Source: an uncultured Planctomycetales bacterium
GTDB lineage: Bacteria > Omnitrophota > Gorgyraeia > Zapsychrales > Fredricksoniimonadaceae
Length of the DNA: 64,000 nt
NCBI GenBank assembly: GCA_964583975.1
Contig: CAZOXU010000009.1
Span: 3,195-67,194, forward strand
Reading direction: 5' to 3'
Part shown: in pieces, positions 1 to 54,738 of the stretch
Position numbering within the stretch: the stretch's first letter is position 1
Layout: each line of letters begins with the position of its first letter
The notes under the pieces: model-generated
Database searches by the model: none
Told to the model about the DNA's origin: nothing
The model's input: the letters and a program-made list of their open reading frames with translations, nothing else
Translations under genes and position numbers: made by a program

Positions 1-3000
1 TTAACTCAACAGGCAGATCAGCCATTAGCGGTTTTTGATACCAAGGAAGCTTTTTGGCGAGCAGCTCCTTTGTCAGGACAAATACTGGAATTAGAACGAA
101 CTCCGATTCAAACCGTTTATATAGCAACCATGGATCGCGAGGTTGCCTTAAGAACCCAACTCGAGGCAGAGGCAGAATCAAATCGAATTTTCAATCGTCA
201 ATCCCAGCTTGTTATTGTGGATGATTCTACCCAGGAGATCTTAAAAGCTAATCAGAAGACTTTGCAAGAGATGTACAAACGCTTTGGATGGCAGTCTTGG
301 CATATTACGCCACAATTAAGAGAGAAAGAATACGATCAATACACCGATGCCATATTAACACGATATCAAGAAGCCTTAGATCTCAATCAATTACGACCGC
401 AAATTCAAAATATTTTAGAAACAAAGCGAATTATAAGTGACGGCAAGATTGATAGAGTGGCTTTGCGAAAATATTTAGAAAAGAATGTGTTTAATCATAT
501 TTCAGGTGTGCGCAATCGAACCTTGCTTAAGGCCAAAGGCGAGTCAACCATTATGAGCATGGATGATGATGCTCCTCCGGAAACCTATGTGGTAGCCAAA
601 TCCCAACGTGAGCAGATTCGTAAAGATCGATTAGAAGTTCGAGAACAACAAATTCATCAGTTGTTACAAGAGGCAGGTGATTTGTTAGGGGAAACGATCG
701 ACACAGAAGAGCAATTGTATAGGGTATTAGCGAATTTAAATGGAAATATGAATTCCAGGGTTGAAGTGTTGATACAAAGATATTTTGGGTACAACCCTGT
801 TAATCGTGCCGGTCGCATTCCCTTGGCCATGGGAGAGATTCAAAAAAGAGACCAACAAATGTTAGATACTAATGGTTGGGGAGCTTATCTTGGAATTAGT
901 CACCAGAGGTACCACGGGCTTATGACGCCTAGTGCGCCCTATATGTTGACCATGAGTGATTTCGTTTATTCAAAACCCAGAACAGAGAAAAAGCAGGGAG
1001 CATTTGAAGTTCTTCCAGTTAATGTGCATCGGATGGGAGATCTTGTTGGGAAAAAGGCTGGGGAAACCGATCTGCCTCTGATGGGTTCTCCTTTAGATGG
1101 TAAGGGAGATTTAAGAGGAACCATGGCTCAGCCAGTGGAAGCTAAACAAAGAGATGCTTTAGGTCAAAGAACAATCACCTATGTGGCGGCTCCCTTTGTG
1201 GAAGATCAAGATACTTCTGCCGTAGCTCAATTTATTCGTTATCTTCAAATTGAGCATAAAAAAGCAGCCAACTTACAGCATGCCAATCAATCAGCCTTGC
1301 TTGTTGGGGGGGTGGGCGGATTTGTAGCGGATACCTATGTGATTTTTAATCGTGCGGCCTTAAGTAATCAAACGGTTTCTCCTTCCATTGGACGTGATCT
1401 TCGATTGGAGGAACCTCCTTATATTGCTTGGGTGAAGTCTCCAATGCTTAAAAATAGTGTGACGGTGGCCTATTCACCAGTTGCTGGTGGACAACAGCGT
1501 GAGATCGCTGAGCGATTATATGACATTAGTCGGCAAGATTATACAGAAGTAGTGGGTGTAGTCGCTAGGGCATCGTATGAACAAGCCGTACGAAGGTTTT
1601 ATCAAGAGCTTGCCAATAGGCTAGATCTACAGCAAGAAGATAAGCATTATGAACGTTTGAGATTGCTGGGGCAGATGTATATTCAAGAGGCAGAACTTTT
1701 TAAAACGACTCCAGAGCAACAAGAATCATTAGATTATCAAAGAAATGCACGAGCCATGATGCTAGGCGAATTATCTTCACAAAAGGCTAATCTAGAGAAA
1801 CAATTGGTGATTGATCCCACCAATTTGCAGTTAGCCCAGGTTATTCGAGATATAGATTTGATTTTTGTTCAATATGCGGAATCATTTACTTTTTATCATG
1901 CTAAAAAATCGAGTGATACAGATTTTGGTCCTAAAACGGATAGTTCGGATTTCTTTTATAGAATTAAAAGACAGGGCAATCGATTGTTCTGGGAGAGGGT
2001 AATACCTTATCTTGAAGTGGTTCCTGAGCGTGGAGTTAAGGTGGCTAGAAAAACACAATGGTTAAAGCATGGTACAAACGAATCAGGTCAAATTATGATT
2101 GATTCATTAATTGCTAAAGAAAACTTTGAGATAGAGGGTGGACGGGCAATTGTTCTAAGCGAAATCCCAAAAGAGGGAGAAGAGTTGATTGTTCCAGTAC
2201 TTTTTAATCAGATGAGAGAAGAATTTATAAGCAATGTTGAAAAGAAAGCTCGCGATCAAATTATTTCGGATGGAGAATTGATGTTGTTTTGGCCTGATTT
2301 GGTTGATGTGGCTATTCCTTGGCGAGAAGAAGCAAAGGATCTTGTAAGAAAACAAGCTGAAGACGATAAAATTATTGCTCGAATTCGTGCTCTTTCTGAA
2401 CAAAAGCAGGCGGCAGGTCCAGACGAAAAAACAATATTAGGGTCATCATTTTATCAGCTACCTAATCGTAGAGTCCAAAAGGGAAAATTCTCTCTACAAT
2501 TTAATCCCGACCGTGAAAAAAGAAGACCATCACAATATCAAGGAGGAGGGATACAACAACCATTTAATCCAGATGGATTTAACTTTAATAAAATAAGTTC
2601 AGAGGAGATTATCAGTGAAGGAGTATTGCAAGGCATGCAAGTGAGTACTATTGTCAATGCTAGACCATTTGCTGAAGGTCATTTTTTGCTGGTACCCCAA
2701 AGACAAGCGAATCATCCGCAATATTTAGACAAACCAGAATATATTCAGATGGTCTTAGAAAGAATGGCCAATGCAGACAAAGATAATTTGAAAATTACTT
2801 ACAATAGCATAGCAGCTTTCGCATCTTTGAATCATTTGCATTTTCAAGGGTTTTATTATGGAGGAGATCTAGAAGGACAGCCGTTATTCAATAATGGGCA
2901 ATTACCCGTTGAGAAAACGCCACGAGAAAAGATTTCCATCTTAAATGATGTGCAGATTTCCAAAGTCCTGGATTACCCTGCACATGCCCTCGCATTTACT

Positions 3001-3525
3001 GCTAAGGATCGAGTTAAATTAGCTCAGGCAGTTTTTCAATATGTCGATATCCTTAATCAGCGAAAGATAGCTTACAATATTCTTTTTAACAAAACTGAAG
3101 TTATTGTCTTTCCTCGACAGTATCAAAAAGTTAATTCCTTGGGGACTGGAACAGCAGTTTTAGAATTGAGTGGAGAATTTATTGTTAACGATCAAGAAAC
3201 ACTCAATCAAACTACGGAAGATGTAATTAAGCAAAACTTACAGGAAGCAACGATTGCAGAAGATTTATTTAAGGAAACTGTGACAGCATTGGTTGACAAA
3301 GCTATGTTAAGTAATACCGGTGGTATCGATCTAACCCCAGCCAAATTAAACCTGCAAACAAATAGCAATGGCGTAATCTCTGCCAAAGGCGGACCAGCCT
3401 CTGACTGGAAATTCAACCTAGATCCTGCCATGCTAAAGCAATTACAAAATTCCCCAGGCTTTGTACCAGTGATCATCAATATCCAGCCATTAAGAGATCT
3501 GAAATCCTTCCTTGATGTTGTCTAA
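1..3525 (+). CDS. Giant protein, 5' partial (frame open to position 1; first in-window start TTG at 70). The C-terminal ~210 aa is a GDP-L-galactose/GDP-D-glucose phosphorylase (VTC2/GDPGP1)-like HIT domain.
   Basis: 1151-aa ORF with no upstream stop before the window edge. The C-terminal region aligns motif by motif with plant VTC2: FNPDGFNFNK, GHFLLVPQ, YNSIAAFASLNHLHFQGFYY (HxHxQ GalT-branch HIT motif), ILFNKTEVIVFPRQ and AVLELSGEFIV. Confidence 0.7.
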   Translation, partial: LTQQADQPLAVFDTKEAFWRAAPLSGQILELERTPIQTVYIATMDREVALRTQLEAEAESNRIFNRQSQLVIVDDSTQEILKANQKTLQEMYKRFGWQSWHITPQLREKEYDQYTDAILTRYQEALDLNQLRPQIQNILETKRIISDGKIDRVALRKYLEKNVFNHISGVRNRTLLKAKGESTIMSMDDDAPPETYVVAKSQREQIRKDRLEVREQQIHQLLQEAGDLLGETIDTEEQLYRVLANLNGNMNSRVEVLIQRYFGYNPVNRAGRIPLAMGEIQKRDQQMLDTNGWGAYLGISHQRYHGLMTPSAPYMLTMSDFVYSKPRTEKKQGAFEVLPVNVHRMGDLVGKKAGETDLPLMGSPLDGKGDLRGTMAQPVEAKQRDALGQRTITYVAAPFVEDQDTSAVAQFIRYLQIEHKKAANLQHANQSALLVGGVGGFVADTYVIFNRAALSNQTVSPSIGRDLRLEEPPYIAWVKSPMLKNSVTVAYSPVAGGQQREIAERLYDISRQDYTEVVGVVARASYEQAVRRFYQELANRLDLQQEDKHYERLRLLGQMYIQEAELFKTTPEQQESLDYQRNARAMMLGELSSQKANLEKQLVIDPTNLQLAQVIRDIDLIFVQYAESFTFYHAKKSSDTDFGPKTDSSDFFYRIKRQGNRLFWERVIPYLEVVPERGVKVARKTQWLKHGTNESGQIMIDSLIAKENFEIEGGRAIVLSEIPKEGEELIVPVLFNQMREEFISNVEKKARDQIISDGELMLFWPDLVDVAIPWREEAKDLVRKQAEDDKIIARIRALSEQKQAAGPDEKTILGSSFYQLPNRRVQKGKFSLQFNPDREKRRPSQYQGGGIQQPFNPDGFNFNKISSEEIISEGVLQGMQVSTIVNARPFAEGHFLLVPQRQANHPQYLDKPEYIQMVLERMANADKDNLKITYNSIAAFASLNHLHFQGFYYGGDLEGQPLFNNGQLPVEKTPREKISILNDVQISKVLDYPAHALAFTAKDRVKLAQAVFQYVDILNQRKIAYNILFNKTEVIVFPRQYQKVNSLGTGTAVLELSGEFIVNDQETLNQTTEDVIKQNLQEATIAEDLFKETVTALVDKAMLSNTGGIDLTPAKLNLQTNSNGVISAKGGPASDWKFNLDPAMLKQLQNSPGFVPVIINIQPLRDLKSFLDVV

Positions 3526-3593
3526 TAATTTATCTTATTTATCTTCTGTATGTGTTCTGATATATTGACTGGATTAATTTTAGAAAGGCTCGT

Positions 3594-4142
3594 ATGGTTT
3601 GGATACTTTGTCTTTGTGTTGTGCTTTTAAGCAGTTGCCAGCAACAACCTCAAGAACGTCATTACACTGAAATAAATATTGAAGCTGTGCAAGTCGCTGT
3701 TCCTAGCGTTTCTGCAGCCGCTGATATGCTCACCTGGGAGATTCCCACGGGCTGGAGGCAAGTGGCTGGCGAAGGGATGCGCGTTGTCACCTTCCAGTTG
3801 ATTTCTGATGCAAAGGCGATAGATTGTTCGATAGTTGCTCTGGGTCGTATGGCAGGCACTTTAGAGGCTAATTTGCGCCGCTGGATGGGTCAGATCCAAC
3901 TTCAAGCATCATCGCAAGAATTAAAAACATTGATAGATGCCGCAGCGAGTGTTCGTATTAAAAGCGGGCAGGAAGCTCACATTTTTGATTTTACAAATTT
4001 GCCATCGGATCAGAGCATGATCGTGTCCATGATCACAATGGAAGATGCTACGGTTTTTGTAAAGATGACTGGTTCAGTTGTCTTGGTTAAAGAAAATAAG
4101 AATGGTTTCTTAAAATTATTAGGGTCAATATCCCGTCGATAA
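3594..4142 (+). CDS. Lipoprotein of unknown function (signal peptide plus lipobox LLSSC)
   Basis: N-terminal hydrophobic segment followed by Cys. RBS-like sequence upstream. Confidence 0.5.
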   Translation: MVWILCLCVVLLSSCQQQPQERHYTEINIEAVQVAVPSVSAAADMLTWEIPTGWRQVAGEGMRVVTFQLISDAKAIDCSIVALGRMAGTLEANLRRWMGQIQLQASSQELKTLIDAAASVRIKSGQEAHIFDFTNLPSDQSMIVSMITMEDATVFVKMTGSVVLVKENKNGFLKLLGSISRR

Positions 4143-4147
4143 ATCAA

Positions 4148-5191
4148 ATGATCAAATTCTTAAGTTCAACACGCCTTACCGTTATTTGCTTGTTTTTGTT
4201 ATTTGTCCTAACCTTCTGGGGAACCATTGCCCAAGTTCATCATGGACTTTATCTTGCCCAAGAACGTTTCTTTAATTCATTCGTCTTTCTAGCCGCAGGG
4301 TGCATACCTTTTCCAGGAGCACAGTTGGTTTTGTGGATTTTGTTTTTTAATCTGTTATGCACATCAATAGTTACCTTTAAGAAATATATACGATGGCCTT
4401 ACGCAGGGTTGCTGATGGTCCATGGAGGGCTTCTTTTATATTTTGTAGCTGCCTTCATGGTGTTTCATGTAGCTGAAGAATCACATGTACGTTTAACTCA
4501 AGGCGAGGCCACCAATGTTTCGACATCCTACTATGACTGGGAGGTGGCGTACTGGCCAGAGGGTAACAATCAGCAGTATCAAGTAACAGCGATTGATACT
4601 ACAGGTTTTAAAGAAGGGTATATCGTTCCTTTTTCAAGCCAAGATTTTGTTTTAAGTGTGAAGAAATTTTATTCCAATTGTGATGATTTTATAAGGCCTA
4701 AACCCATTCTTAAAGAGAGAGAGCAGAATATTGCAGGAGGGACTTTTGATATCACCTTTGAGGGTAAAAGTCATCATTTAATATTGTATGGGGCTGCGCT
4801 GCCGACAAAAGTCAATATAGCTGGGAAAACATATAATTTTATTTTGCGCCATAAACGTTACGTCTTACCTTTTACGATCAAATTAGACAGCTTTAAGGCT
4901 GAATTTTATCCAGGAACGCAGACAGCCAAAAGCTTTGAAAGCTTGGTCAACGTTTCTACAGGAACGCTCCAACGTCAGACGCGTATTTTTATGAACAATC
5001 CTTTGAGGTATAAGGACTACACTCTATATCAAGCCTCCTATGACGTAGATGCAAATGGAAGGGAACATTCGACTTTGGCGGTAGTTAAAAACTTTGCGAA
5101 ATTTTTGCCTTATATCGCCTGTTTTGTTGTTTTTCTGGGGCTGGCTTTGCATTTTTTGATTCAGGCCTTTAGTTCGAGGAATCGCCGATGA
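4148..5191 (+). CDS. ccsB: Cytochrome c biogenesis protein ResB/Ccs1-like (system II), short form
   Basis: N-terminal TM helices, large extracytoplasmic region and C-terminal TM. Its stop overlaps the ccsA start (ATGA coupling). Confidence 0.45.
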   Translation: MIKFLSSTRLTVICLFLLFVLTFWGTIAQVHHGLYLAQERFFNSFVFLAAGCIPFPGAQLVLWILFFNLLCTSIVTFKKYIRWPYAGLLMVHGGLLLYFVAAFMVFHVAEESHVRLTQGEATNVSTSYYDWEVAYWPEGNNQQYQVTAIDTTGFKEGYIVPFSSQDFVLSVKKFYSNCDDFIRPKPILKEREQNIAGGTFDITFEGKSHHLILYGAALPTKVNIAGKTYNFILRHKRYVLPFTIKLDSFKAEFYPGTQTAKSFESLVNVSTGTLQRQTRIFMNNPLRYKDYTLYQASYDVDANGREHSTLAVVKNFAKFLPYIACFVVFLGLALHFLIQAFSSRNRR

Positions 5192-26768: not shown

Positions 26769-29700
26769 ATGAAACGTTCGATCGCCATAGGCATCCTTAT
26801 AAGCTTTGTTACTACTATCATCTGTCCAGCCCGTAGCTATGCTGCGCCAGGCCAGTTAAACCTACCTGTTCCTGGAACTATGGTGAATTTGAGCCAAAGC
26901 TTTGCACCCGTGATTTTAAAGGGTGTCAGAGTTTATCCCGATAATCCCTTACGTTTTGATTTTATTCTTGATACCGGAGATTCCAAATTAAAGGGCCAGG
27001 CGCTTAAAGATGAATCCAACCGTTTAATCAAATATTTCTTAGCCTCTTTGACTGTTCCAGAAAAGGATCTGTGGGTGAATCTTTCGCCATATGAAAAAGA
27101 TCGGATTGTTCCTGAATCTTTTGGTGTCACCCAAATGGGCCGCGATCTTTTGGCTGAGGATTATATTCTCAAGCAAATGACCGCTAGTCTTATCTATCCT
27201 GAAGATGAATTAGGTAAGAAGTTTTGGAAGAGAATCTACGAAGAAGCACAAGCCAAATATCACACCACCAATATCCCAGTAAATACCTTTAATAAAGTTT
27301 GGATTGTTCCAGAGCACGCCAGTGTTTATAAGAATGGTACCTCAGCATTCGTCACCAAGGCGCATTTGAAGGTTATGTTAGAGGCTGATTATTTAGCGAT
27401 GAATAAGAATGCCGTGTCTGCACAGGCGCAGGATGCAAATCAAATCGGCTCCCAAATCGTCCGTGAAATTGTCCTACCAGCTCTTGAAAAAGAAATTAAT
27501 GAAGGTCAAAACTTTATCCAACTTAGACAAATCTATAATTCTCTTATCCTAGCCATTTGGTTTAAACGTAATCTGAAGGAAAGTGTGCTTGGTAAAATCT
27601 ACATGGGCCAAAATAAAGTTGGTGGGGTAGATATTCAAGATAAGAATGAAAAACAAAAAATTTATCAATCGTATCTCGAAGCCTATAAAAAGGGCGTTTA
27701 TAACTATATTAAGGAAGACCGTGATCCGGTTACTCAAAAAACAACGCCTCGTAAATATTTCTCTGGTGGAGCTTGGATGTCGCGAGCAACAAATGTTTTT
27801 AGCGATGAAGCGACATTGGGTGATGTGTCGATCGATCCTGATCACGCCATGCTGGTCAAAGCTAATTTAAAAGCCGAAGAAGAGAATATTTCTGCCCCAA
27901 AAGATCGTGCTATGATTGCAGATATTCCTCGGGTGTTGCAAGATAAAGATGTTCCGGCATTCAGAAGTATTCGAGATCGAATTTTGTGGCTTTCTACTCG
28001 GATGATTGAAGAGGCTAATCGTAACAAAGAAGATGTGAATGTGGGCGGACATCAGGCTGCAGCTGCTTCGTCTTTGGATATCATGATGGCCTTAGAATTA
28101 TTTACTATGAATGGCCCTGATTTTGTGGCTCATAAACCTCACGCAGGTCCGGTTTATCATGCAATTCAATACCTTTTAGGAAAATTATCTAAAGAAACTT
28201 TAAGCCGCTTACGTGAAAATGCAATTTCTCCAGATTATAGTTCTCGTTTACAAGAAACAATTAAGGCTCTTCCGCCAGAAGCTGCTGAGCAATTCAGGGT
28301 TTTTCAGTCAAAATTATTAGAAGATCTTCCGCTTAGCGCCAATAGTGATTTAGATAAGGAAGGACTCCATTCATATCCAGGAATGGCAGATCCAGATCGA
28401 GTGCTTATTCCCACAGGTTCAGTGGGTCTTGGTCCTGCTGCAACAATTGCATTAGCACTCTCCTACAAATGGATGAAAGATCATGGGTATAATGTTCCTG
28501 ATCCACGGTTTTATGCTGTGGTTGGAGATTCTGAATTTGGTGAAGGTAATTATCAGGAAATACTGCCTTTAGTGCAGCAATTTGGTCTTAAAAATATAAC
28601 TCACATTTTGGATTATAATCGTCAATCCTTGGATGGTAATACCCAACAATGGCGTTTACAAAATATTAAAGATCGTTATGCAGCCAATGGTTGGAAGATC
28701 ATTGAGTTAAAGTGGGGCAGTAAGCTTAAGGCAGCTTTTGCTGATGGCGGCCAGAAATTCCGAGAAGTGATGGATGCTTTGCCTCAGGAAGAATATCAAG
28801 ATATGACGGGTAAAACTGGAGCAGAGATTCGAGAATATTTGATCAATAAAGAAACTTCATTAGCTAGATTTTTGGAGAAATATAATGATGAACAGCTTTA
28901 TGATCTATATACGGATTTGGCAGGACATGATTTGCAGGTATTAACTTCAGCATTGCAAGAAGCAAAGATCAGCGGACAATCGGTTGCTATTATCGCCCAT
29001 ACAATTAAGGGAAAAGGTTTAAGGCCATTGATTGGTCAGCCTGGCAATCATTCGATGCGTTTAACTCCAACTGCACTGGAAGATTTGCGTAAAGAAATGG
29101 GAATATCCGAAGTTGAACCTTTTCCTGCCTTTGATGCAGAATCTGTAGAAGGTAAGCTATTAAATAATCTAAAAGATAGGATCGATTTAGAACGTCAGGC
29201 TGCAGCAGAACTTATCAGTTCTAATTCTGGTGCTAATAAAACATTTGATGTAAGTAATATTCCAAGTCGTATAACACCATCTTCTGCGATAGTTCCTACA
29301 GGACTCTCCAATGTGTCTACCCAGGTTTGGTTTGGGTATATCATTTCCATGCTTCGGGGAATTTCTCAAAAGTCTGAGGCTGAATTAACTGATGAAGAAC
29401 GTTCTTGGTTGCCGATTGCTAAAAGAATTGTAACCATTTCTCCGGATGTGGCTACTTCCACAGGTGTTGGTAAAAAAGGAAAATTGGCAGGGTATGGACC
29501 TGATAGCTTAGAGGATACACATATTCGTCTGGGTATTGAAGAAATGAATGCTCTGACGGTTGCTGCAGCTTTAGGAAAAATGAGAGATTTCATGGGCCAA
29601 TCAATTCTGCCCGTTGTAACCATTTATGACATGTTTTTGTTTCGTCGCGCCTTAGACCCAGCATTTTACGCTCAATATTGGAAATCGCGTGTTCTTATGG

Positions 29701-31055
29701 TTGGAACACCATCAGGATCAACTCTTGCACCAGAAGGAGCTCAGCACCAGTCGATTACTTCAGCCGTTATTGGCGGGGCTTTGCCGAATACCATTGTTTG
29801 GGATCCAGCTTTCGGTGTTGAACTTGAATACATATTAGGCGATGAATTAAAAAGAACCTTAAGCGGTGACTATGAGGGAAGAAATGTAATCTATTTGCGA
29901 GGCTCAACCTTGGATCAAAGTCGTAAGGAATTAGCCGCTCGTTTGGCTGTTCAAAAACGTTTTAAAGGCCGTGAGATTTCAGAGAAGAATTTGCCGGAGG
30001 AATGGTCAGAAGACCTTTTAAAAGGCGGATATCGTTTGGTTGATTATACGGGTTACGCGGCTTATGATCCTAATGTGAATGTGGTTAATATTATTACCGT
30101 TGGCCCAATGGTCAAAGAGGCGCTCAGGGCTTCCGATAAACTTTTAGAACGAGGTATTTATGCGAATGTGATTGTAGTGAGTAGTTCATCGCTTTTACAT
30201 GGGAATTTAGGAAGAAAAGATAATTATCAACATCTAAGGAAATTGATTCCTGTTAACGAAACGTTTCTTACTCCAACAGTTGCTGTTGCTGATGCTTCTC
30301 CTGATTATTTGGCTGGGATCGCCGGTATTCTTGGTTTAAATTTGGAAATGCCAACCTTAGGTTTGCGTAAAAATGGAGTTTCAACTCGAGGAACAGCTCG
30401 TATTTATATTCATCATGGAATTTCGTTTAAAAATATTGCTGAAACAGCTTTGGCCGAGATTCGCCATAGAGATAGTGGTCATAGTCCCAAGGTTCAGATG
30501 ATGCAGCAGTGGGCTAGTAAACAATGGCAGGCAAAAATATATGCTGAAATAGCTCGTCTTGAAGATCTTTTAGAGAAAACATCATCTTTTGGTGGGGCAT
30601 ATATTCGTCAACAAATTGCGTTTTATGAAGAATTGCTAGAGAATGGAACTTTAGATGCAGCCATGAATGCCGCATTAAATGACCGATTAACAGAGTTGCG
30701 GTCTGTAATGGAAACAGCAGGGGATCTTACAGTGCGAACTATTTTGCAAAATGAAATTGATGGATTAGGTCATTTTGTGTCTGAAAAAGATTCTGCGCAA
30801 ACCGTAACCAAGAAACAAGAGCTTGGAGGTATCGACTTAAACGCAGCTAAGATGAATATTAAAGAAGAAGGTAATGATATTTCCGCCAGAGGCGGATCCG
30901 CCTTTGGCGGAAAACTTCCACCGGTGGACTTAAAAGCCTTTGAAAACAAGAATTTCAACGGCTTTACTCCAATTATTATTGAAATTGTTCCTATCAAAGA
31001 TCTTCCCATGGTTCTTGGAGCATCGCAGCCGCAAGAGAAACTTGCTTCAGTCTAG
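26769..31055 (+). CDS. Giant (1428 aa) signal-peptide protein containing a complete pyruvate dehydrogenase E1 (AceE-type, homodimeric TPP) domain, flanked by ~350-aa N-terminal and ~190-aa C-terminal extensions
   Basis: Sec signal MKRSIAIGILISFVTTIICPARSYA-AP. E1 motifs: VGGHQAAAASS, EGLHSYPG, GSVGLGPA, TPP-binding GDSEFGEGN...LDYNRQSLDG, and IIAHTIKGKG, plus a transketolase-like C-terminal domain. Confidence 0.75.
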   Translation: MKRSIAIGILISFVTTIICPARSYAAPGQLNLPVPGTMVNLSQSFAPVILKGVRVYPDNPLRFDFILDTGDSKLKGQALKDESNRLIKYFLASLTVPEKDLWVNLSPYEKDRIVPESFGVTQMGRDLLAEDYILKQMTASLIYPEDELGKKFWKRIYEEAQAKYHTTNIPVNTFNKVWIVPEHASVYKNGTSAFVTKAHLKVMLEADYLAMNKNAVSAQAQDANQIGSQIVREIVLPALEKEINEGQNFIQLRQIYNSLILAIWFKRNLKESVLGKIYMGQNKVGGVDIQDKNEKQKIYQSYLEAYKKGVYNYIKEDRDPVTQKTTPRKYFSGGAWMSRATNVFSDEATLGDVSIDPDHAMLVKANLKAEEENISAPKDRAMIADIPRVLQDKDVPAFRSIRDRILWLSTRMIEEANRNKEDVNVGGHQAAAASSLDIMMALELFTMNGPDFVAHKPHAGPVYHAIQYLLGKLSKETLSRLRENAISPDYSSRLQETIKALPPEAAEQFRVFQSKLLEDLPLSANSDLDKEGLHSYPGMADPDRVLIPTGSVGLGPAATIALALSYKWMKDHGYNVPDPRFYAVVGDSEFGEGNYQEILPLVQQFGLKNITHILDYNRQSLDGNTQQWRLQNIKDRYAANGWKIIELKWGSKLKAAFADGGQKFREVMDALPQEEYQDMTGKTGAEIREYLINKETSLARFLEKYNDEQLYDLYTDLAGHDLQVLTSALQEAKISGQSVAIIAHTIKGKGLRPLIGQPGNHSMRLTPTALEDLRKEMGISEVEPFPAFDAESVEGKLLNNLKDRIDLERQAAAELISSNSGANKTFDVSNIPSRITPSSAIVPTGLSNVSTQVWFGYIISMLRGISQKSEAELTDEERSWLPIAKRIVTISPDVATSTGVGKKGKLAGYGPDSLEDTHIRLGIEEMNALTVAAALGKMRDFMGQSILPVVTIYDMFLFRRALDPAFYAQYWKSRVLMVGTPSGSTLAPEGAQHQSITSAVIGGALPNTIVWDPAFGVELEYILGDELKRTLSGDYEGRNVIYLRGSTLDQSRKELAARLAVQKRFKGREISEKNLPEEWSEDLLKGGYRLVDYTGYAAYDPNVNVVNIITVGPMVKEALRASDKLLERGIYANVIVVSSSSLLHGNLGRKDNYQHLRKLIPVNETFLTPTVAVADASPDYLAGIAGILGLNLEMPTLGLRKNGVSTRGTARIYIHHGISFKNIAETALAEIRHRDSGHSPKVQMMQQWASKQWQAKIYAEIARLEDLLEKTSSFGGAYIRQQIAFYEELLENGTLDAAMNAALNDRLTELRSVMETAGDLTVRTILQNEIDGLGHFVSEKDSAQTVTKKQELGGIDLNAAKMNIKEEGNDISARGGSAFGGKLPPVDLKAFENKNFNGFTPIIIEIVPIKDLPMVLGASQPQEKLASV

Positions 31056-46224: not shown

Positions 46225-47880
46225 TTGAAAAGACCATTCAGGTTTCTGTGTATTTTATCGATGGTTTTTGCTGTTTTTCTGCACCAATCCCCATTGCATG
46301 CTTTAGACGCTGCAATGCCTCTCGAATCGAAGAAAATATCTTTAGACTACAAGAATGCTGAATTGACCGATGTGCTCAAAGCCATGTCTTATTCTTACAA
46401 TCTTAATATCGTGGTGGCTAAGGACATTACCGGCAAAGTATCAGCCCAATTAAAAGACGTGACCGCTGAAGAAGCTTTAAATGCTATTTTGACCGGCAGC
46501 AGTTATGCCTATATGCGTAAAGGTGACATTATTTACGTCCAGTCTAAAGAAGAGATGGATCTGGTGACGGAAACCCTCGTTTTGAATTATATTCCCCTCG
46601 AACAAGCCCAAACGTTATTAAGTGGTGCTATCACTCGATTAAAAGCTAACATTCAGGTCAATAAAGATGCCAATGCTTTGGTGGTGACAACCAATCCAGG
46701 AGATTTAGAAAAATTAAAAGTGATTTTGCAGGGCATTGACGTTCCTCCGATTCAGGTCTTAATTGAAGCCCAGATCGTCGATATTAATAGATCTGATATT
46801 CAACAGATTGATAGCGCTGTTAGTCTGATTTATTCAGCTAATCAAGTGGGAGGGACGTTCTCCAAATTTAGTCCCAACGTTACAGCAGGATCTGCCTCTA
46901 ATACAGCAGCGACAAGCACATCTAACACTTCATCTTCATCCACATCTTCCACTTCAGGAGATCAGGGTGTGTTTTCTTTTGCTAATAACAATTATTCTCA
47001 AATGTCTATTACAGCCTTAGTTAATCAACATAAAGCACGTGTTATCGCTTCTCCGTCGATTGCAACTCTTAATGGCCATGAAGCTAGCATTGTGATTGGG
47101 GAGAAATATCCTGTTGTGACCTCAACGTCTTCGGCTGGAGGGACGGGTGGCAGCATTGTCAATCAAACTACCACATCTTATATCGATATTGGAACCAAGC
47201 TTAAAGTCACTCCTCGCGTTTCACCAGATGGTTGGATTACTATGAAAATTGAACCCGAAGTTTCTTCCGTGTTAGGTGTAACGTCCAATGGAAATCCTAA
47301 CATTGCGACCCGTTCAGCCAATACAGAGGTTCGGGTGAGAGATAATGAAACGATCGTGATAGGGGGCCTAAAAAGTAAAAGTGATTTGCGAGATAAAAAT
47401 GGTATTCCAGGCTTAAAAGATATCCCCATTCTTGGAGCTTTATTTCAAAGTCATAATAAATCCTTGGTTGACGGGGAATTGACTGTTTTAATTACACCAC
47501 ATGTCATCCCTATGGTCCATCCAGAGAAAGCAAAAAATCCTCCACCAAGGAAAGTTATGACAGGTGAAGATAGCGTACTGGTCCATAACATCTTGAATTA
47601 TATTGATACTCTCGAGGCAGATAGGTCTAAGGATCGGGCTAAAAATCTTTACCTAAGCGGGGAACAAATTAAAGCTTACAGAATGCTTTTGCAGGAATTT
47701 CCTGCTTCGGGTAAAGGAGATTATTGCCTTTATAGAATTGCTTTGAAATATGCTAAGGACTTTGGTAATTGCAAGGCAGCTAAAGAAACTTTTGCGGAGT
47801 TACAGGAGTTGTTTCCCACAAGTTCTTTTATTCCTGTGACAGAATCTTTGGTCGATGCTTGTACAGCTGTGCAGCTTTAA
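46225..47880 (+). CDS. pilQ: Type IV pilus secretin PilQ-like (TTG start)
   Basis: Signal peptide, N-terminal secretin-N domains, an S/T-rich linker, and a C-terminal secretin domain (ATLNGHEASIVIGEKYPV..., GGLKSK...IPILGALF). Confidence 0.8.
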   Translation: MKRPFRFLCILSMVFAVFLHQSPLHALDAAMPLESKKISLDYKNAELTDVLKAMSYSYNLNIVVAKDITGKVSAQLKDVTAEEALNAILTGSSYAYMRKGDIIYVQSKEEMDLVTETLVLNYIPLEQAQTLLSGAITRLKANIQVNKDANALVVTTNPGDLEKLKVILQGIDVPPIQVLIEAQIVDINRSDIQQIDSAVSLIYSANQVGGTFSKFSPNVTAGSASNTAATSTSNTSSSSTSSTSGDQGVFSFANNNYSQMSITALVNQHKARVIASPSIATLNGHEASIVIGEKYPVVTSTSSAGGTGGSIVNQTTTSYIDIGTKLKVTPRVSPDGWITMKIEPEVSSVLGVTSNGNPNIATRSANTEVRVRDNETIVIGGLKSKSDLRDKNGIPGLKDIPILGALFQSHNKSLVDGELTVLITPHVIPMVHPEKAKNPPPRKVMTGEDSVLVHNILNYIDTLEADRSKDRAKNLYLSGEQIKAYRMLLQEFPASGKGDYCLYRIALKYAKDFGNCKAAKETFAELQELFPTSSFIPVTESLVDACTAVQL

Positions 47881-52151: not shown

Positions 52152-52523
52152 ATGAAAATTAGAAAAATTTTCAAAAGCAGAGGCTTTACTCTCTTGGAAA
52201 TTGTACTTTCCACCGTTCTCATTACGATTGGTGTGACTGCAGTTGTTCGAGTTATTTCAACAGGCATTTATACAGACAATGCTAGTGAAGGGAAAATCAT
52301 CGCGTTAAATTATGCCGTACAGAAGATGGAAGACCTATTAAATACTTCTTATAGTAGTCTTTCTTCTAGTTCAGATACGCCTACCACAGGTTTTACAAGA
52401 ACTTGGACAATCACTGATAATACAAATTATAAGACGCTCAAGGTGACAGTCAGTTGGTATTATAAAAGAGTTCAAATGTCGGTTAATTTAGCGAGCTATC
52501 TTGCCAATGTTACTACTTCCTAA
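52152..52523 (+). CDS. Minor (pseudo)pilin, PilV/PilE-like
   Basis: Leader ...KSRG/FTLLEIVL. Confidence 0.65.
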   Translation: MKIRKIFKSRGFTLLEIVLSTVLITIGVTAVVRVISTGIYTDNASEGKIIALNYAVQKMEDLLNTSYSSLSSSSDTPTTGFTRTWTITDNTNYKTLKVTVSWYYKRVQMSVNLASYLANVTTS

Positions 52524-54738
52524 TCGAATAAGAAACAAAGTAGGCTTTTCCTTGGTTGAAATTGTGGTGGTTATGGGTATGCTGGTTTTTTTAACAGTGT
52601 CCATAACCAAGGTTTTTACAGGGACCTTCCGAGCTTTTGGTTTTAGCCAAGACCGCGCTCAAGCAACTAATCGCATCTCCCTAGCATTTCAGAAAATGGT
52701 AGATGAACTCCAGCAGTCAGATGGAATTAAGTCCTGTGATGGTTTAAGTGTTACATTCTCCTTGGCAGGTTCTTTTTATAAATATCAAGTAAGCTCAAAT
52801 CAATTACAAAGAATAGATCCTAACAATAGAAAAGAAATATTAGTTAACTATGTGAAAACTCCTGGTTCTGGCGGGGCATATTCTTTGCCATGGTTGTGTT
52901 CAGGAGGAACGGTAAGGATTGATTTGACTACCTATAATCCTGCTTTTAGTTCAACCTTGACAACTAATAATACATCACATTTTGTAACTACTGTTACACC
53001 TAGAGGAATTCCTTATGGTTTAGTGTATTGGTGGAAGTTAAATGAAGGCACAGATACAACACTTTATGATTTAGGTGGCAGATACCCAAGTGGGAATATG
53101 GATGGTATTCCAGCATATTTAACGGGTGATTCTGGGGGACCCGCTTGGACTACGGGGATAGCAAATGGGGCTTTAACTTTTACAGCATCTAATAATGACT
53201 ATCTTTATTTGAATGAACCTATTGGGGGTTATGGAGAGCTTAATGGGCATAATTCTTGGACTGTAAGTTTTTGGTTTAAGGCGACTACTCTTAAAGCATA
53301 TGCTAGTGGGCAATCTCCAGGAATGTTCATTGCTTCTAGAGGAGCGCCAGCGGGAATATTTATATCCACAGATAATTGGATATATCGGGGTGCAGATGAT
53401 GCGGATAATACAGTCGCAACAACGACAAGTGTGGGCTGTTGGTATCATTTGGCTATGAGCTTTGATGCTTCATCTGGTAGTGTGATGGTTTATAAGAATG
53501 GCGATCTTTTAGGTACCATCACCCATCAGGATTCATTGGAAAATAGTGGGTATTATTTCGATACCATTGGAACTGATTATACGAACTATTTTAATGGAGT
53601 TATGGATGATATACGTTTTTATAATTATGTTTTAAGTAATGATGAGATAGCCAAGCTATCTCGATACTTGCCCTATTATAGTTCTTCGGCCCTTGCTATT
53701 GCTGATATTTATACAGATGCTAATAATTGCGGAGCTATCGGCACCGTCTGTGCAGGGGGTACTTCATGCTATAGCGGAAAATGTTGTACAACAGGTTACA
53801 CCAATTGCAGCACTACTGGTGGACTCTGTGGAACTTGCTATTCGATGGCTAGCAGCTCCACTAATTGTGGTAATTGTGGCAACGCTTGTGCGGGAGGTAA
53901 AAGTTGTTCAGATGGGTATTGCTGTACTACAGGTTTGACCAATTGTTTCACGGGAGTAAATGCTTGTCAAAATTTGACCAATGATTCTAGTAATTGTGGA
54001 TCTTGCGGGAATGCTTGTGGGGTAGGAACTCCAACATGTTGTTCTTCTTCTTGTGTGAATACTACAACTAATTCAAGTAACTGTGGATCTTGTGGGAATG
54101 CTTGTACTTCAGGAACAACGCCTGCCTGTTGTAGCTCATCGTGTGTTGACGAATATGTGAATACAAGTAATTGTGGTGCATGTGGTACAACTTGTGGTGG
54201 GGGGACTCCATATTGTTGCCATGGATCGTGTAGTGCTCTGGCTCCTACAGGTACTGTCTGTACAGTAAATGGAGAATGTTGTAGTAACGTATGTTCATGT
54301 TTTACCTCTGGAACTAAGGTTTTACTGATTAATGGCAAAAAGATTGCCATTGAAAAACTTAAGGTGGGAGACGTATTGTTGGGTTCAAATAGAACTCATA
54401 ATAAAGTCATTCGACTAGACGTAAGACCTAAAGAAGTAAGAAAAATTTATTCTTTCAATGATGGGCGTTATTTTGTGACGGAAAATCATCCCTTTATGAC
54501 CAAAGAAGGATGGAAGGCCCTTAATCCTCAATTGGCCCAATTAGAACAAAGCCAGATTAAGATAGGTCAACTTAATATTGGAGATGAGATTGTAACCCAG
54601 AAAGGTTTTGTTAAACTTAAAAAGATTAAATTTAAAACTATAAATACAGTTGTGTACAATCCTCAATTAGATGGCAGTCATGATTATTATGCAGATGGTT
54701 TTTTAGTGCACAATAAAGGAGCTAAACATTGCACATAA
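52501..54738 (+). CDS. Large pilin-like protein: prepilin N-terminus, LamG/ConA-like domain, tandem Cys-rich modules, and a C-terminal Hint (intein/hedgehog-type) domain
   Basis: Leader ...NKVG/FSLVEIVVV. LamG signature ...DDIRFYNYVLSNDEIAKL. At least four repeats of NCGxCGNAC..G....CC..SC. Hint begins CFTSGTKVLLINGK..., has block-B-like VTENHPF, and ends GFLVHN plus 6 aa. Confidence 0.7.
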   Translation: MPMLLLPNRIRNKVGFSLVEIVVVMGMLVFLTVSITKVFTGTFRAFGFSQDRAQATNRISLAFQKMVDELQQSDGIKSCDGLSVTFSLAGSFYKYQVSSNQLQRIDPNNRKEILVNYVKTPGSGGAYSLPWLCSGGTVRIDLTTYNPAFSSTLTTNNTSHFVTTVTPRGIPYGLVYWWKLNEGTDTTLYDLGGRYPSGNMDGIPAYLTGDSGGPAWTTGIANGALTFTASNNDYLYLNEPIGGYGELNGHNSWTVSFWFKATTLKAYASGQSPGMFIASRGAPAGIFISTDNWIYRGADDADNTVATTTSVGCWYHLAMSFDASSGSVMVYKNGDLLGTITHQDSLENSGYYFDTIGTDYTNYFNGVMDDIRFYNYVLSNDEIAKLSRYLPYYSSSALAIADIYTDANNCGAIGTVCAGGTSCYSGKCCTTGYTNCSTTGGLCGTCYSMASSSTNCGNCGNACAGGKSCSDGYCCTTGLTNCFTGVNACQNLTNDSSNCGSCGNACGVGTPTCCSSSCVNTTTNSSNCGSCGNACTSGTTPACCSSSCVDEYVNTSNCGACGTTCGGGTPYCCHGSCSALAPTGTVCTVNGECCSNVCSCFTSGTKVLLINGKKIAIEKLKVGDVLLGSNRTHNKVIRLDVRPKEVRKIYSFNDGRYFVTENHPFMTKEGWKALNPQLAQLEQSQIKIGQLNIGDEIVTQKGFVKLKKIKFKTINTVVYNPQLDGSHDYYADGFLVHNKGAKHCT

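Follow-up and report, generated by a model that had tools for sequence, protein, structure and literature searches.

At the start of a 64,000-nucleotide stretch of contig CAZOXU010000009.1 (assembly GCA_964583975.1; the whole stretch is hereafter called the window) from an uncultured bacterium of the Omnitrophota, frame 1 of the forward strand runs without a stop from nt 1 to a stop codon at nt 3523-3525 and comprises 1174 codons. The earliest candidate start codon is a TTG at nt 70, from which 1151 aa would be encoded. The gene is cut at its 5' end, and its product is probably the C-terminal part of a multi-module Omnitrophota protein, in which a long conserved module is followed by a linker, a domain of the HIT superfamily and a tail. 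The closest named relatives of the module, the HIT domain and the tail are all Candidatus Omnitrophota. The features are listed below, with residues numbered from the first codon of the open frame:

1..3525, + strand: 5'-truncated open reading frame (ORF) of 1174 codons plus stop, probably the C-terminal part of a multi-module protein.
4..2331, + strand: C-terminal ~70% (residues 2-777) of a conserved ~1080-aa module (hmmsearch E 2e-277 with a window-free profile).
112..600, + strand: predicted Rossmann-like, GT-A-type nucleotide-sugar-binding subdomain (residues 38-200), with four strands and DDD after the fourth.
496..516, + strand: invariant HISGxRN (residues 166-172).
553..588, + strand: invariant M..DDDA..ETY (residues 185-196), with DDD at residues 188-190 as a candidate metal/diphosphate-binding DXD motif.
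2332..2469, + strand: poorly conserved linker between module and HIT domain (residues 778-823), near which most module homologues end; its limits are those of the domain envelopes.
2470..3282, + strand: GDPGP1/VTC2-like, two-lobed HIT domain (residues 824-1094; hmmsearch E 6.9e-97).
2563..2592, + strand: motif FNPDGFNFNK.
2677..2700, + strand: motif GHFLLVPQ.
2794..2859, + strand: motif ITYNSIAAFASLNHLHFQGFYY, which includes HLHFQ.
2833..2847, + strand: HLHFQ, i.e., HxHxQ with His945, His947 and Gln949, of which His947 is the residue predicted to be nucleotidylated.
2956..2997, + strand: motif ISKVLDYPAHALAF.
3154..3186, + strand: motif AVLELSGEFIV.
3304..3516, + strand: Omnitrophota C-terminal tail (residues 1102-1172), GGIDL...F.LDPAML.QLQN.PGFVPVIINIQPL.DLK.FL. 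(tail-profile E 1.8e-32).

Judged by its alignments, the HIT domain is an intact member of the GDPGP1/VTC2 family, in the GalT branch of the HIT superfamily. A phmmer search with residues 815-1100 against 1.84 billion representative proteins returned 870 matches at E<=1e-3 and 327 at E<=1e-10, including GDP-L-galactose phosphorylase 1 of Gossypium (P0224, E 2.2e-19), GDP-L-galactose phosphorylase 1 of the diplonemid Diplonema papillatum (P0269, E 6.1e-16), a GDP-L-galactose phosphorylase 2-like protein of Asparagus (P0284, E 2.7e-15) and a GDP-D-glucose phosphorylase 1-like protein of the mite Varroa (P0307, E 1.2e-14). The Gossypium enzyme is 27% identical to the window domain over 300 columns in a pairwise BLASTP (E 5e-35), and every named motif block is aligned. 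The kinship with GDPGP1/VTC2 that an earlier note on this DNA had proposed is thus borne out by named phosphorylases at E 1e-14 to 1e-20, and the five motifs that it had quoted are all found at their places, with HLHFQ at nt 2833-2847. The profile behind the E value of 6.9e-97 was built without the window and without P0041, a relative 64% identical to the window over the HIT domain. Both P0041 and P0181, a member of the same clade, carry precomputed Pfam assignments to GDPGP1_N (PF26217) and GDPGP1_C (PF26216). These two models are absent from the Pfam set used on the window, which was scored there only against HIT and ATP_transf, and the relatives P0001, P0056 and P0173 show weak HIT or Ap4A_phos_N matches only in the same set. 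A scan of the window protein against NCBIfam gave only a sub-threshold HinT match.

The relationship of the domain to solved structures is more distant. A phmmer search of the PDB sequences with the window domain found only HIT proteins at E>0.1, whereas a profile of 49 family members matches yeast Apa2 (4I5T) over chain residues 12-307 with an E value of 5.6e-14, and Apa2 is the one solved structure that this profile matches over its full length. The domain is two-lobed by these comparisons, consisting of a HIT-like N-terminal half and a C-terminal half related to the C-terminal domain of diadenosine tetraphosphate (Ap4A) phosphorylase. Apa2 (4I5T/4I5V) likewise has two lobes, the aligned HxHxQ and transfer of a nucleoside monophosphate (NMP) to phosphate, but it differs in substrate class and is detectable as kin only by the family profile and not by the window sequence. 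An AlphaFold2 (AF2) model of the HIT domain and tail, computed without an alignment, is unusable, with a predicted local distance difference test score (pLDDT) of 31.6.

In VTC2/VTC5 of plants and GDPGP1 of animals, the likeness to the window domain extends over the whole domain, both lobes and all motif blocks including NHLHFQ, and the same chemistry is predicted, in which a His-NMP intermediate is resolved by phosphate. The characterised VTC2/GDPGP1 enzymes are stand-alone eukaryotic proteins of ~330-450 aa, whereas the window copy is bacterial, stands second to last among the modules of a protein of at least 1174 aa, precedes an Omnitrophota-specific tail and falls in a clade apart, which comprises domains from proteins of 900-6500 aa. 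The stand-alone build is an architectural trait of the characterised members and no catalytic requirement.

The HxHxQ motif is kept in 220 of the 283 homologues, and 40 others read HxHxH. HLHFQ of the window aligns with HLHFQ of Gossypium GDP-L-galactose phosphorylase 1 (GGP1) and with HKHLQ of yeast Apa2, as the proposed equivalence with the catalytic motif of GDPGP1/VTC2 had implied; in the 4i5v sequence the central histidine reads alanine (HKALQ). The window also keeps NHLHFQ as a whole, the upstream histidine of GHFLLVP and the N, P, E and G that are almost invariant in the family. The match of the family profile to Apa2, with HxHxQ aligned, shows that the two share the fold and the class of chemistry, namely NMP transfer to phosphate. 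Based on the enzymology of the HIT/GalT branch and a review of it (PMC11066809), we propose that the HIT domain takes a nucleoside-diphosphate (NDP) hexose, by homology most likely a GDP-hexose; that His947, the predicted nucleophile, attacks the alpha-phosphate, upon which hexose-1-phosphate would leave; and that inorganic phosphate would then resolve the His-NMP intermediate to yield NDP. Gln949, which replaces the third histidine, may favour phosphate over water. By this analogy, the most likely function of the domain is NDP-hexose phosphorolysis via His947-NMP inside a multi-enzyme nucleotide-sugar protein. A characterised prokaryotic enzyme of the GDPGP1 type did not turn up in the literature searched.

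In that literature, GDP-hexose phosphorylases of the VTC2/GDPGP1 type are treated as plant, animal and protist enzymes; in plants, VTC2 carries out the committed step towards vitamin C, and in animals GDPGP1 serves nucleotide-sugar quality control (PMC11066809). The family profile, however, finds 806 proteins. Among the 120 matches listed of these, nearly all are ~350-aa stand-alone proteins, all have GDPGP1_N on record, and the few that are named are bacterial (Thiodiazotropha and Chromatiales metagenome-assembled genomes, MAGs). One such ~350-aa bacterial member is encoded on a chromosome-size NCBI record of 4.79 Mb (CP019936.1), where its neighbours, at the one locus examined, are not sugar-related. 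The ~350-aa bacterial GDPGP1_N proteins are 26-34% identical to the window over ~90% of the domain and mostly keep HxHxQ; they differ from it in standing alone, in an extra N-terminal extension of ~100 aa and in their place in the tree.

The best phmmer matches of the window domain are neither these short stand-alone proteins nor eukaryotic enzymes. They are domains within long proteins, such as P0176 (3426 aa), P0178 (1762 aa), P0181 (2070 aa), P0184 (2940 aa), P0185 (3108 aa), P0193 (4621 aa) and P0254 (6513 aa), and the names on long HIT proteins, where given, are Candidatus Omnitrophota (P0177, P0178 and P0252). In a rough, midpoint-rooted neighbour-joining tree, the window groups with P0041, P0179 and P0175 in a large clade that contains almost only domains of 900-6500-aa proteins, several of them with the Omnitrophota tail, while the sequences from plants, the diplonemid and the mite are placed in the other half together with the short stand-alone proteins. 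Rough as it is, this tree is enough to reject a recent transfer of the window copy from a eukaryote to a bacterium. The earlier note had called the family essentially eukaryotic and had suggested horizontal acquisition; the first view gives way to a large bacterial stand-alone family and a separate clade of Omnitrophota type, and the second to the position of the eukaryotes in the tree. Going by the company it keeps in sequence comparisons, the domain is one of the building blocks that recur natively in the long multi-enzyme sugar-metabolism proteins of Omnitrophota.

The domains that accompany the HIT domain in this clade are those of commonplace enzymes of sugar and nucleotide-sugar metabolism. 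Pfam scans of the long proteins found it together with UDPGP (P0178), NUDIX (P0177) and radical SAM plus GFO/IDH/MocA (P0176 and P0184), and also with starch synthase of glycosyltransferase (GT) family 5, GT4, HAD, ROK, ribulose-phosphate epimerase, PPDK_N, fucose pyrophosphorylase and phosphomannose isomerase (PMI). These long HIT-bearing proteins correspond to a "multi-enzyme metabolic" class of long Omnitrophota proteins that is described in passages of a recent preprint, which cites West-Roberts et al. (2023), and the longest example given there includes NUDIX and HIT in its content (bioRxiv 10.64898/2026.06.07.730766). The passages of this preprint that we found do not single out the GDPGP1-type domain, the ~1080-aa module or the C-terminal tail. 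Omnitrophota multi-enzyme proteins tile many sugar-metabolism domains in one polypeptide; in the window protein two enzyme-like modules and the tail are visible, and relatives of both modules are found in ORFs of 2000 to more than 7400 aa.

The part of the protein that precedes the HIT domain, which the earlier note had set down as an unknown N-terminal region of ~830 aa, is a conserved module that can be recognised in homologues from several phyla, although no Pfam or NCBIfam family was found for it. Fifteen module homologues, 35-68% identical, come from Omnitrophota, Zixibacteria and "Proteobacteria" MAGs, and 60 residues are invariant across the 16 module sequences. In addition to HISGxRN and M..DDDA..ETY, the invariant blocks include PF..D.D.S..AQ, LQH, Y.IFNR and IG..LR.EEPP. 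The homologues have ~300 residues more at the N-terminus than the window, and most end about where residues 778-823 lie in the window, after ...SDGE.I.LWPDL; 13 of the 15 stop right after the module and lack the HIT domain. A further 19 module loci were found with one genome per species and five in Joint Genome Institute (JGI) metagenomes, with MAG labels that include Omnitrophota, "Planctomycetia", Myxococcota, Woesearchaeota and Thermoplasmata. The Woesearchaeota and Thermoplasmata archaeon labels belong to three homologues (L012, L014 and L018), which may reflect either spread across domains of life or mis-binned contigs.

At five loci (L001, L007, L009, L010 and L016), an ORF of 4800 to more than 7400 aa encloses the module. 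Some of these ORFs, those of more than 7400 aa (L001, L007 and L009), extend past both ends of the 22-kb loci and are therefore true giant genes. The module is duplicated in tandem in L001 (CAWHFJ010000013.1) and L007 (JBDRMG010000065.1), both from Omnitrophota MAGs, and the giant module ORFs also carry fucose pyrophosphorylase (three ORFs), NTP_transferase, PMI, phosphoglucomutase/phosphomannomutase (PGM/PMM), GT5/GT1, glycoside hydrolase family 130 (GH130) and HEAT repeats.

An AF2 model of the module from the 16-sequence alignment has a mean pLDDT of 66.6 and a predicted template modelling score (pTM) of 0.63; residues 40-190 and 510-800 are modelled well, the invariant core at residues 280-510 poorly. 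In the model, residues 38-190 fold into a Rossmann-like unit of four strands, and the invariant DDD comes immediately after the fourth. The best structural match of the module is MtdL, a GT75 enzyme with a GT-A fold and a DDD motif, which converts GDP-L-galactose and GDP-L-fucose between their pyranose and furanose forms (PMC9937993). This likeness is suggestive because VTC2 enzymes also handle GDP-L-galactose, and by analogy with GT-A enzymes (PMC9937993) the DDD of the module is a candidate DXD motif. The model thus suggests a "GT-A-like", predicted nucleotide-sugar-binding fold. We did not adopt a GT75 identity for the module, as the lead is at the level of the fold and comes without sequence or profile likeness to the RGP family. 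Foldseek of the model against the PDB gave no match below E 0.05; the module profile matched no PDB sequence, MtdL included; Pfam RGP did not match the module at E<=1; and hhalign of the module with an approximate RGP1 sequence returned a probability of 0.1. The literature searched contained nothing relevant on MtdL in combination with a transglycosylase. The GT75 mutases (MtdL, Hyg20 and plant RGP/UAM) are also three times shorter than the module, whose invariant core at residues 300-530 has no counterpart in them, and no correspondence to module residues was established for the conserved GT75 residues Arg159, Asp195, Gln229, Arg257, Asp260 and His287.

The order module, short linker, HIT domain is found in three independent sequences, i.e., the window, P0041 and L013. 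P0041 is 68% identical to the window. L013 is a 6.7-kb contig with one open frame, in which the module takes up residues 587-1782 and the HIT domain residues 1857-2114, and the nearest relative of its HIT domain is the Omnitrophota protein P0252. Because the two parts of L013 have diverged from those of the window to 39% (module) and 26% (HIT domain) identity, the link between them either is old or arose twice. Fusion of module and HIT domain as a rule was considered and ruled out, as only three of about 35 module instances carry it. Since the fusion recurs in these three sequences and the partners of both parts include nucleotide-sugar enzymes, module and HIT domain probably act on the same nucleotide-sugar pool; the phosphorylase may recycle or proofread the NDP-sugar that the module would bind.

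How much of the protein is missing can be gauged from the module. Residues 2-777 of the window correspond to positions 302-1082 of a 1086-position module profile, which was built without the window and without P0041, and because residue 2 aligns at profile position 302, at least ~300 aa of the module must lie 5' of the window. This agrees with the earlier remark that the frame is open to the first base and the protein even larger. Contig scans made for the upstream sequence did not recover it: the scan of genome contigs for close relatives found none, and no metagenome contig contained an exact 42-mer of the window start. A look-up with the downstream gene at 3594..4142 gave matches only on Logan contigs of 0.9-2.9 kb. 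Identical copies of that gene are present in runs SRR12487046 and SRR20074301 (Logan contigs L029 and L030), and L030 has a 107-aa gene fragment just 5' of its copy, where the window has the end of the 1..3525 ORF. These two runs could supply the missing 5' part.

The tail is about 65-70 aa long and follows the pattern GGID[LF], a variable loop and GI[KQ]FH.DPAML.QLQNAPGFVPVIINIQP..DL..FLG. In the first search with the window protein, 39 of 40 matches cover the tail only, and the tail stands at the extreme C-terminus in all 48 proteins fetched. Its carriers are otherwise unrelated and include GGDEF, XRE-HTH, DnaJ, HPr, PEP-utilising and methyltransferase proteins and several long HIT proteins. 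A second copy in the window, at about nt 30810-31020, ends a transketolase/pyruvate dehydrogenase E1-like protein of 1428 aa (ORF 26769..31055, + strand). Neither Pfam nor NCBIfam has a model for the tail, and the literature searched makes no mention of it. About half of the tail copies among P0002-P0040 have a D/N/E-x-A-M motif 8-25 residues upstream, and some copies have in-frame low-complexity inserts in the variable loop, e.g., MDSRFRGNDKEGNGND. Our guess is that the tail is probably a lineage-specific address or assembly tag.

Taken as a whole, the best explanation is that the ORF encodes the end, with three parts visible, of a long Omnitrophota protein of the multi-enzyme type whose HIT domain would be an NDP-hexose phosphorylase sharing a nucleotide-sugar pool with the module, a reading that we hold to be reasonably probable. 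Several points weigh against it. The Pfam HIT match of the window (residues 870-948) is weak, scoring 22.4 bits for the sub-sequence and 20 bits for the whole protein at a cut-off of 21.5, and the ATP_transf match (residues 1007-1082; E 1.7e-4) scores 19.6-22.3 bits, below the cut-off of 23.5. The substrate, whether a GDP-sugar, an ADP- or UDP-sugar or a dinucleoside polyphosphate, is a guess by analogy with the eukaryotic members, and the HIT domain accompanies so few of the ~35 module instances (three) that a tie between the two parts is far from general. As to location, a signal-peptide- or anchor-like hydrophobic start is found in the relatives P0337 (HIT plus tail), P0044, P0048, P0053 and P0054, which include stand-alone module proteins as well as long proteins with HIT domain and tail, and, in the preprint passages available, most long Omnitrophota proteins are predicted to be membrane-associated or exported (bioRxiv 10.64898/2026.06.07.730766); an extracytoplasmic site would be odd for an NDP-sugar phosphorylase.

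The first alternative is that the HIT domain is a phosphorylase of Ap4A or other dinucleoside polyphosphates (Apa1/Apa2-like, i.e., an ATP adenylyltransferase) or an ADP-glucose phosphorylase, which would clear alarmone-type nucleotides. Besides HIT, the only Pfam matches are indeed ATP_transf, the C-terminal domain of Ap4A phosphorylase, at the E value given above and, in relatives, Ap4A_phos_N; several ~350-aa bacterial relatives are named "Ap4A HIT family hydrolase" or "ATP adenylyltransferase" by JGI; and the only solved structure matched over the full length is yeast Apa2. However, ATP_transf stays below its gathering score and Ap4A_phos_N has no match on the window. The window sequence itself does not match Apa2 at E<=10, yet it matches GDP-hexose phosphorylases at 1e-14 to 1e-20 in a 10,000 times larger library, the newer Pfam places GDPGP1_N and GDPGP1_C on close relatives, and the fusion partners of the HIT domain are sugar enzymes. 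We regard this alternative as unlikely, albeit one to be reckoned with.

A bolder proposal starts from the tail, which may be a phylum-specific address tag that directs its carriers, dozens of enzymes and regulators not otherwise related, to a single destination, either a docking site on the giant scaffold proteins or a host cell reached by export independent of a signal peptide, while the DDD module and the GDPGP1-like domain would form an undescribed pathway unit of the GDP-L-galactose/GDP-L-fucose type. We offer it as a long shot. If it is true, the idea of an effector in the earlier note would be right for a different reason.

The favoured phosphorolysis has to be set against a third possibility as well, in which the physiological reaction is a GalT-like nucleotidyl exchange (NDP-hexose A + hexose-1-phosphate B -> hexose-1-phosphate A + NDP-hexose B) that interconverts activated sugars for neighbouring transferase modules, without net phosphorolysis. 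GalT shares the HxHxQ branch with the window domain, plant GGP is to a small extent also a guanylyltransferase (PMC11066809), and fusions with pyrophosphorylases and transferases would fit a line of sugar activation. Among those family members that have been characterised, transferase activity plays a minor part (PMC11066809), and the sequence does not discriminate between exchange and phosphorolysis. Exchange as the main reaction seems distinctly improbable to us.

That the domain is eukaryote-derived and rides on a giant secreted effector or toxin, which would act on GDP-sugars of a host or nucleotidylate host targets, is very improbable. Omnitrophota are thought to be host-dependent and, in the same preprint passages, export or membrane anchoring is predicted for most of their long proteins (bioRxiv 10.64898/2026.06.07.730766); the signal-peptide-like start of P0337, which has HIT domain and tail, points the same way, and the conserved tail could be an export tag. 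Against this, the HIT domain belongs to a deep bacterial clade apart from the eukaryotic sequences, its partners are sugar enzymes of housekeeping type, and the same tail is found on transketolase-like, HPr, DnaJ, XRE and GGDEF proteins. The three N-termini of tail proteins that were read (DnaJ P0007, HPr P0029 and P0035) have no signal-peptide-like start, and the visible 1174 aa contain no hydrophobic segment. The genes that follow 3' encode ResB/CcsA cytochrome c assembly proteins, an alpha/beta hydrolase, FabF, a HAD phosphatase, an aminotransferase, an LpxD-like protein, a DEAD helicase and a histidine kinase, which are ordinary chromosomal or housekeeping genes. With such partners and neighbours, the suggestion of an effector or toxin in the earlier note finds no support. 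Lastly, the HIT domain might have lost catalysis and serve only in structure or binding, as the degenerate motifs INLDVA (P0299) and SKHYQ (L013) of some clade members could suggest; for the window copy, which retains NHLHFQ, the upstream GHFLLVP histidine and the N, P, E and G that hardly vary in the family, the chance of this is next to negligible.

Around the ORF, a scan of nt 3400-4300 for promoters and terminators found none. The window and P0041 share no gene neighbourhood, and the 182-aa gene 3' of the window ORF is unrelated to the 183-aa DUF6680 gene 3' of P0041. The gene of P0041, the closest homologue (L020, contig ena:ERZ27280223:k141_938989), is itself truncated 5' through an insertion sequence (L020 1-120); the C-terminus of a transposase (...YNCKRTHSTLGYLSPLQYEKKHAVCLN) stops just before the annotated P0041 start, and resolvase and recombinase genes lie 3' of P0041. 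Elsewhere in the window there is a secretin gene at 46225-47880, and an ORF of 745 aa at 52501-54738 (+ strand) has Laminin_G_3, Stig1-like and weak Hint (Hom_end_hint) matches and may encode a self-processing surface protein.

Here a known enzyme family is met in a new architecture and a new lineage, within a recently described class of proteins. Pfam already groups bacterial sequences under GDPGP1_N, and no established view is overturned. The module and the tail add two conserved elements that are unannotated. For the family, these results indicate that GDPGP1 has a large bacterial side and a distinct radiation inside long Omnitrophota multi-enzyme proteins; for the Omnitrophota, they give a handle on what some of their long proteins may do, namely nucleotide-sugar processing.

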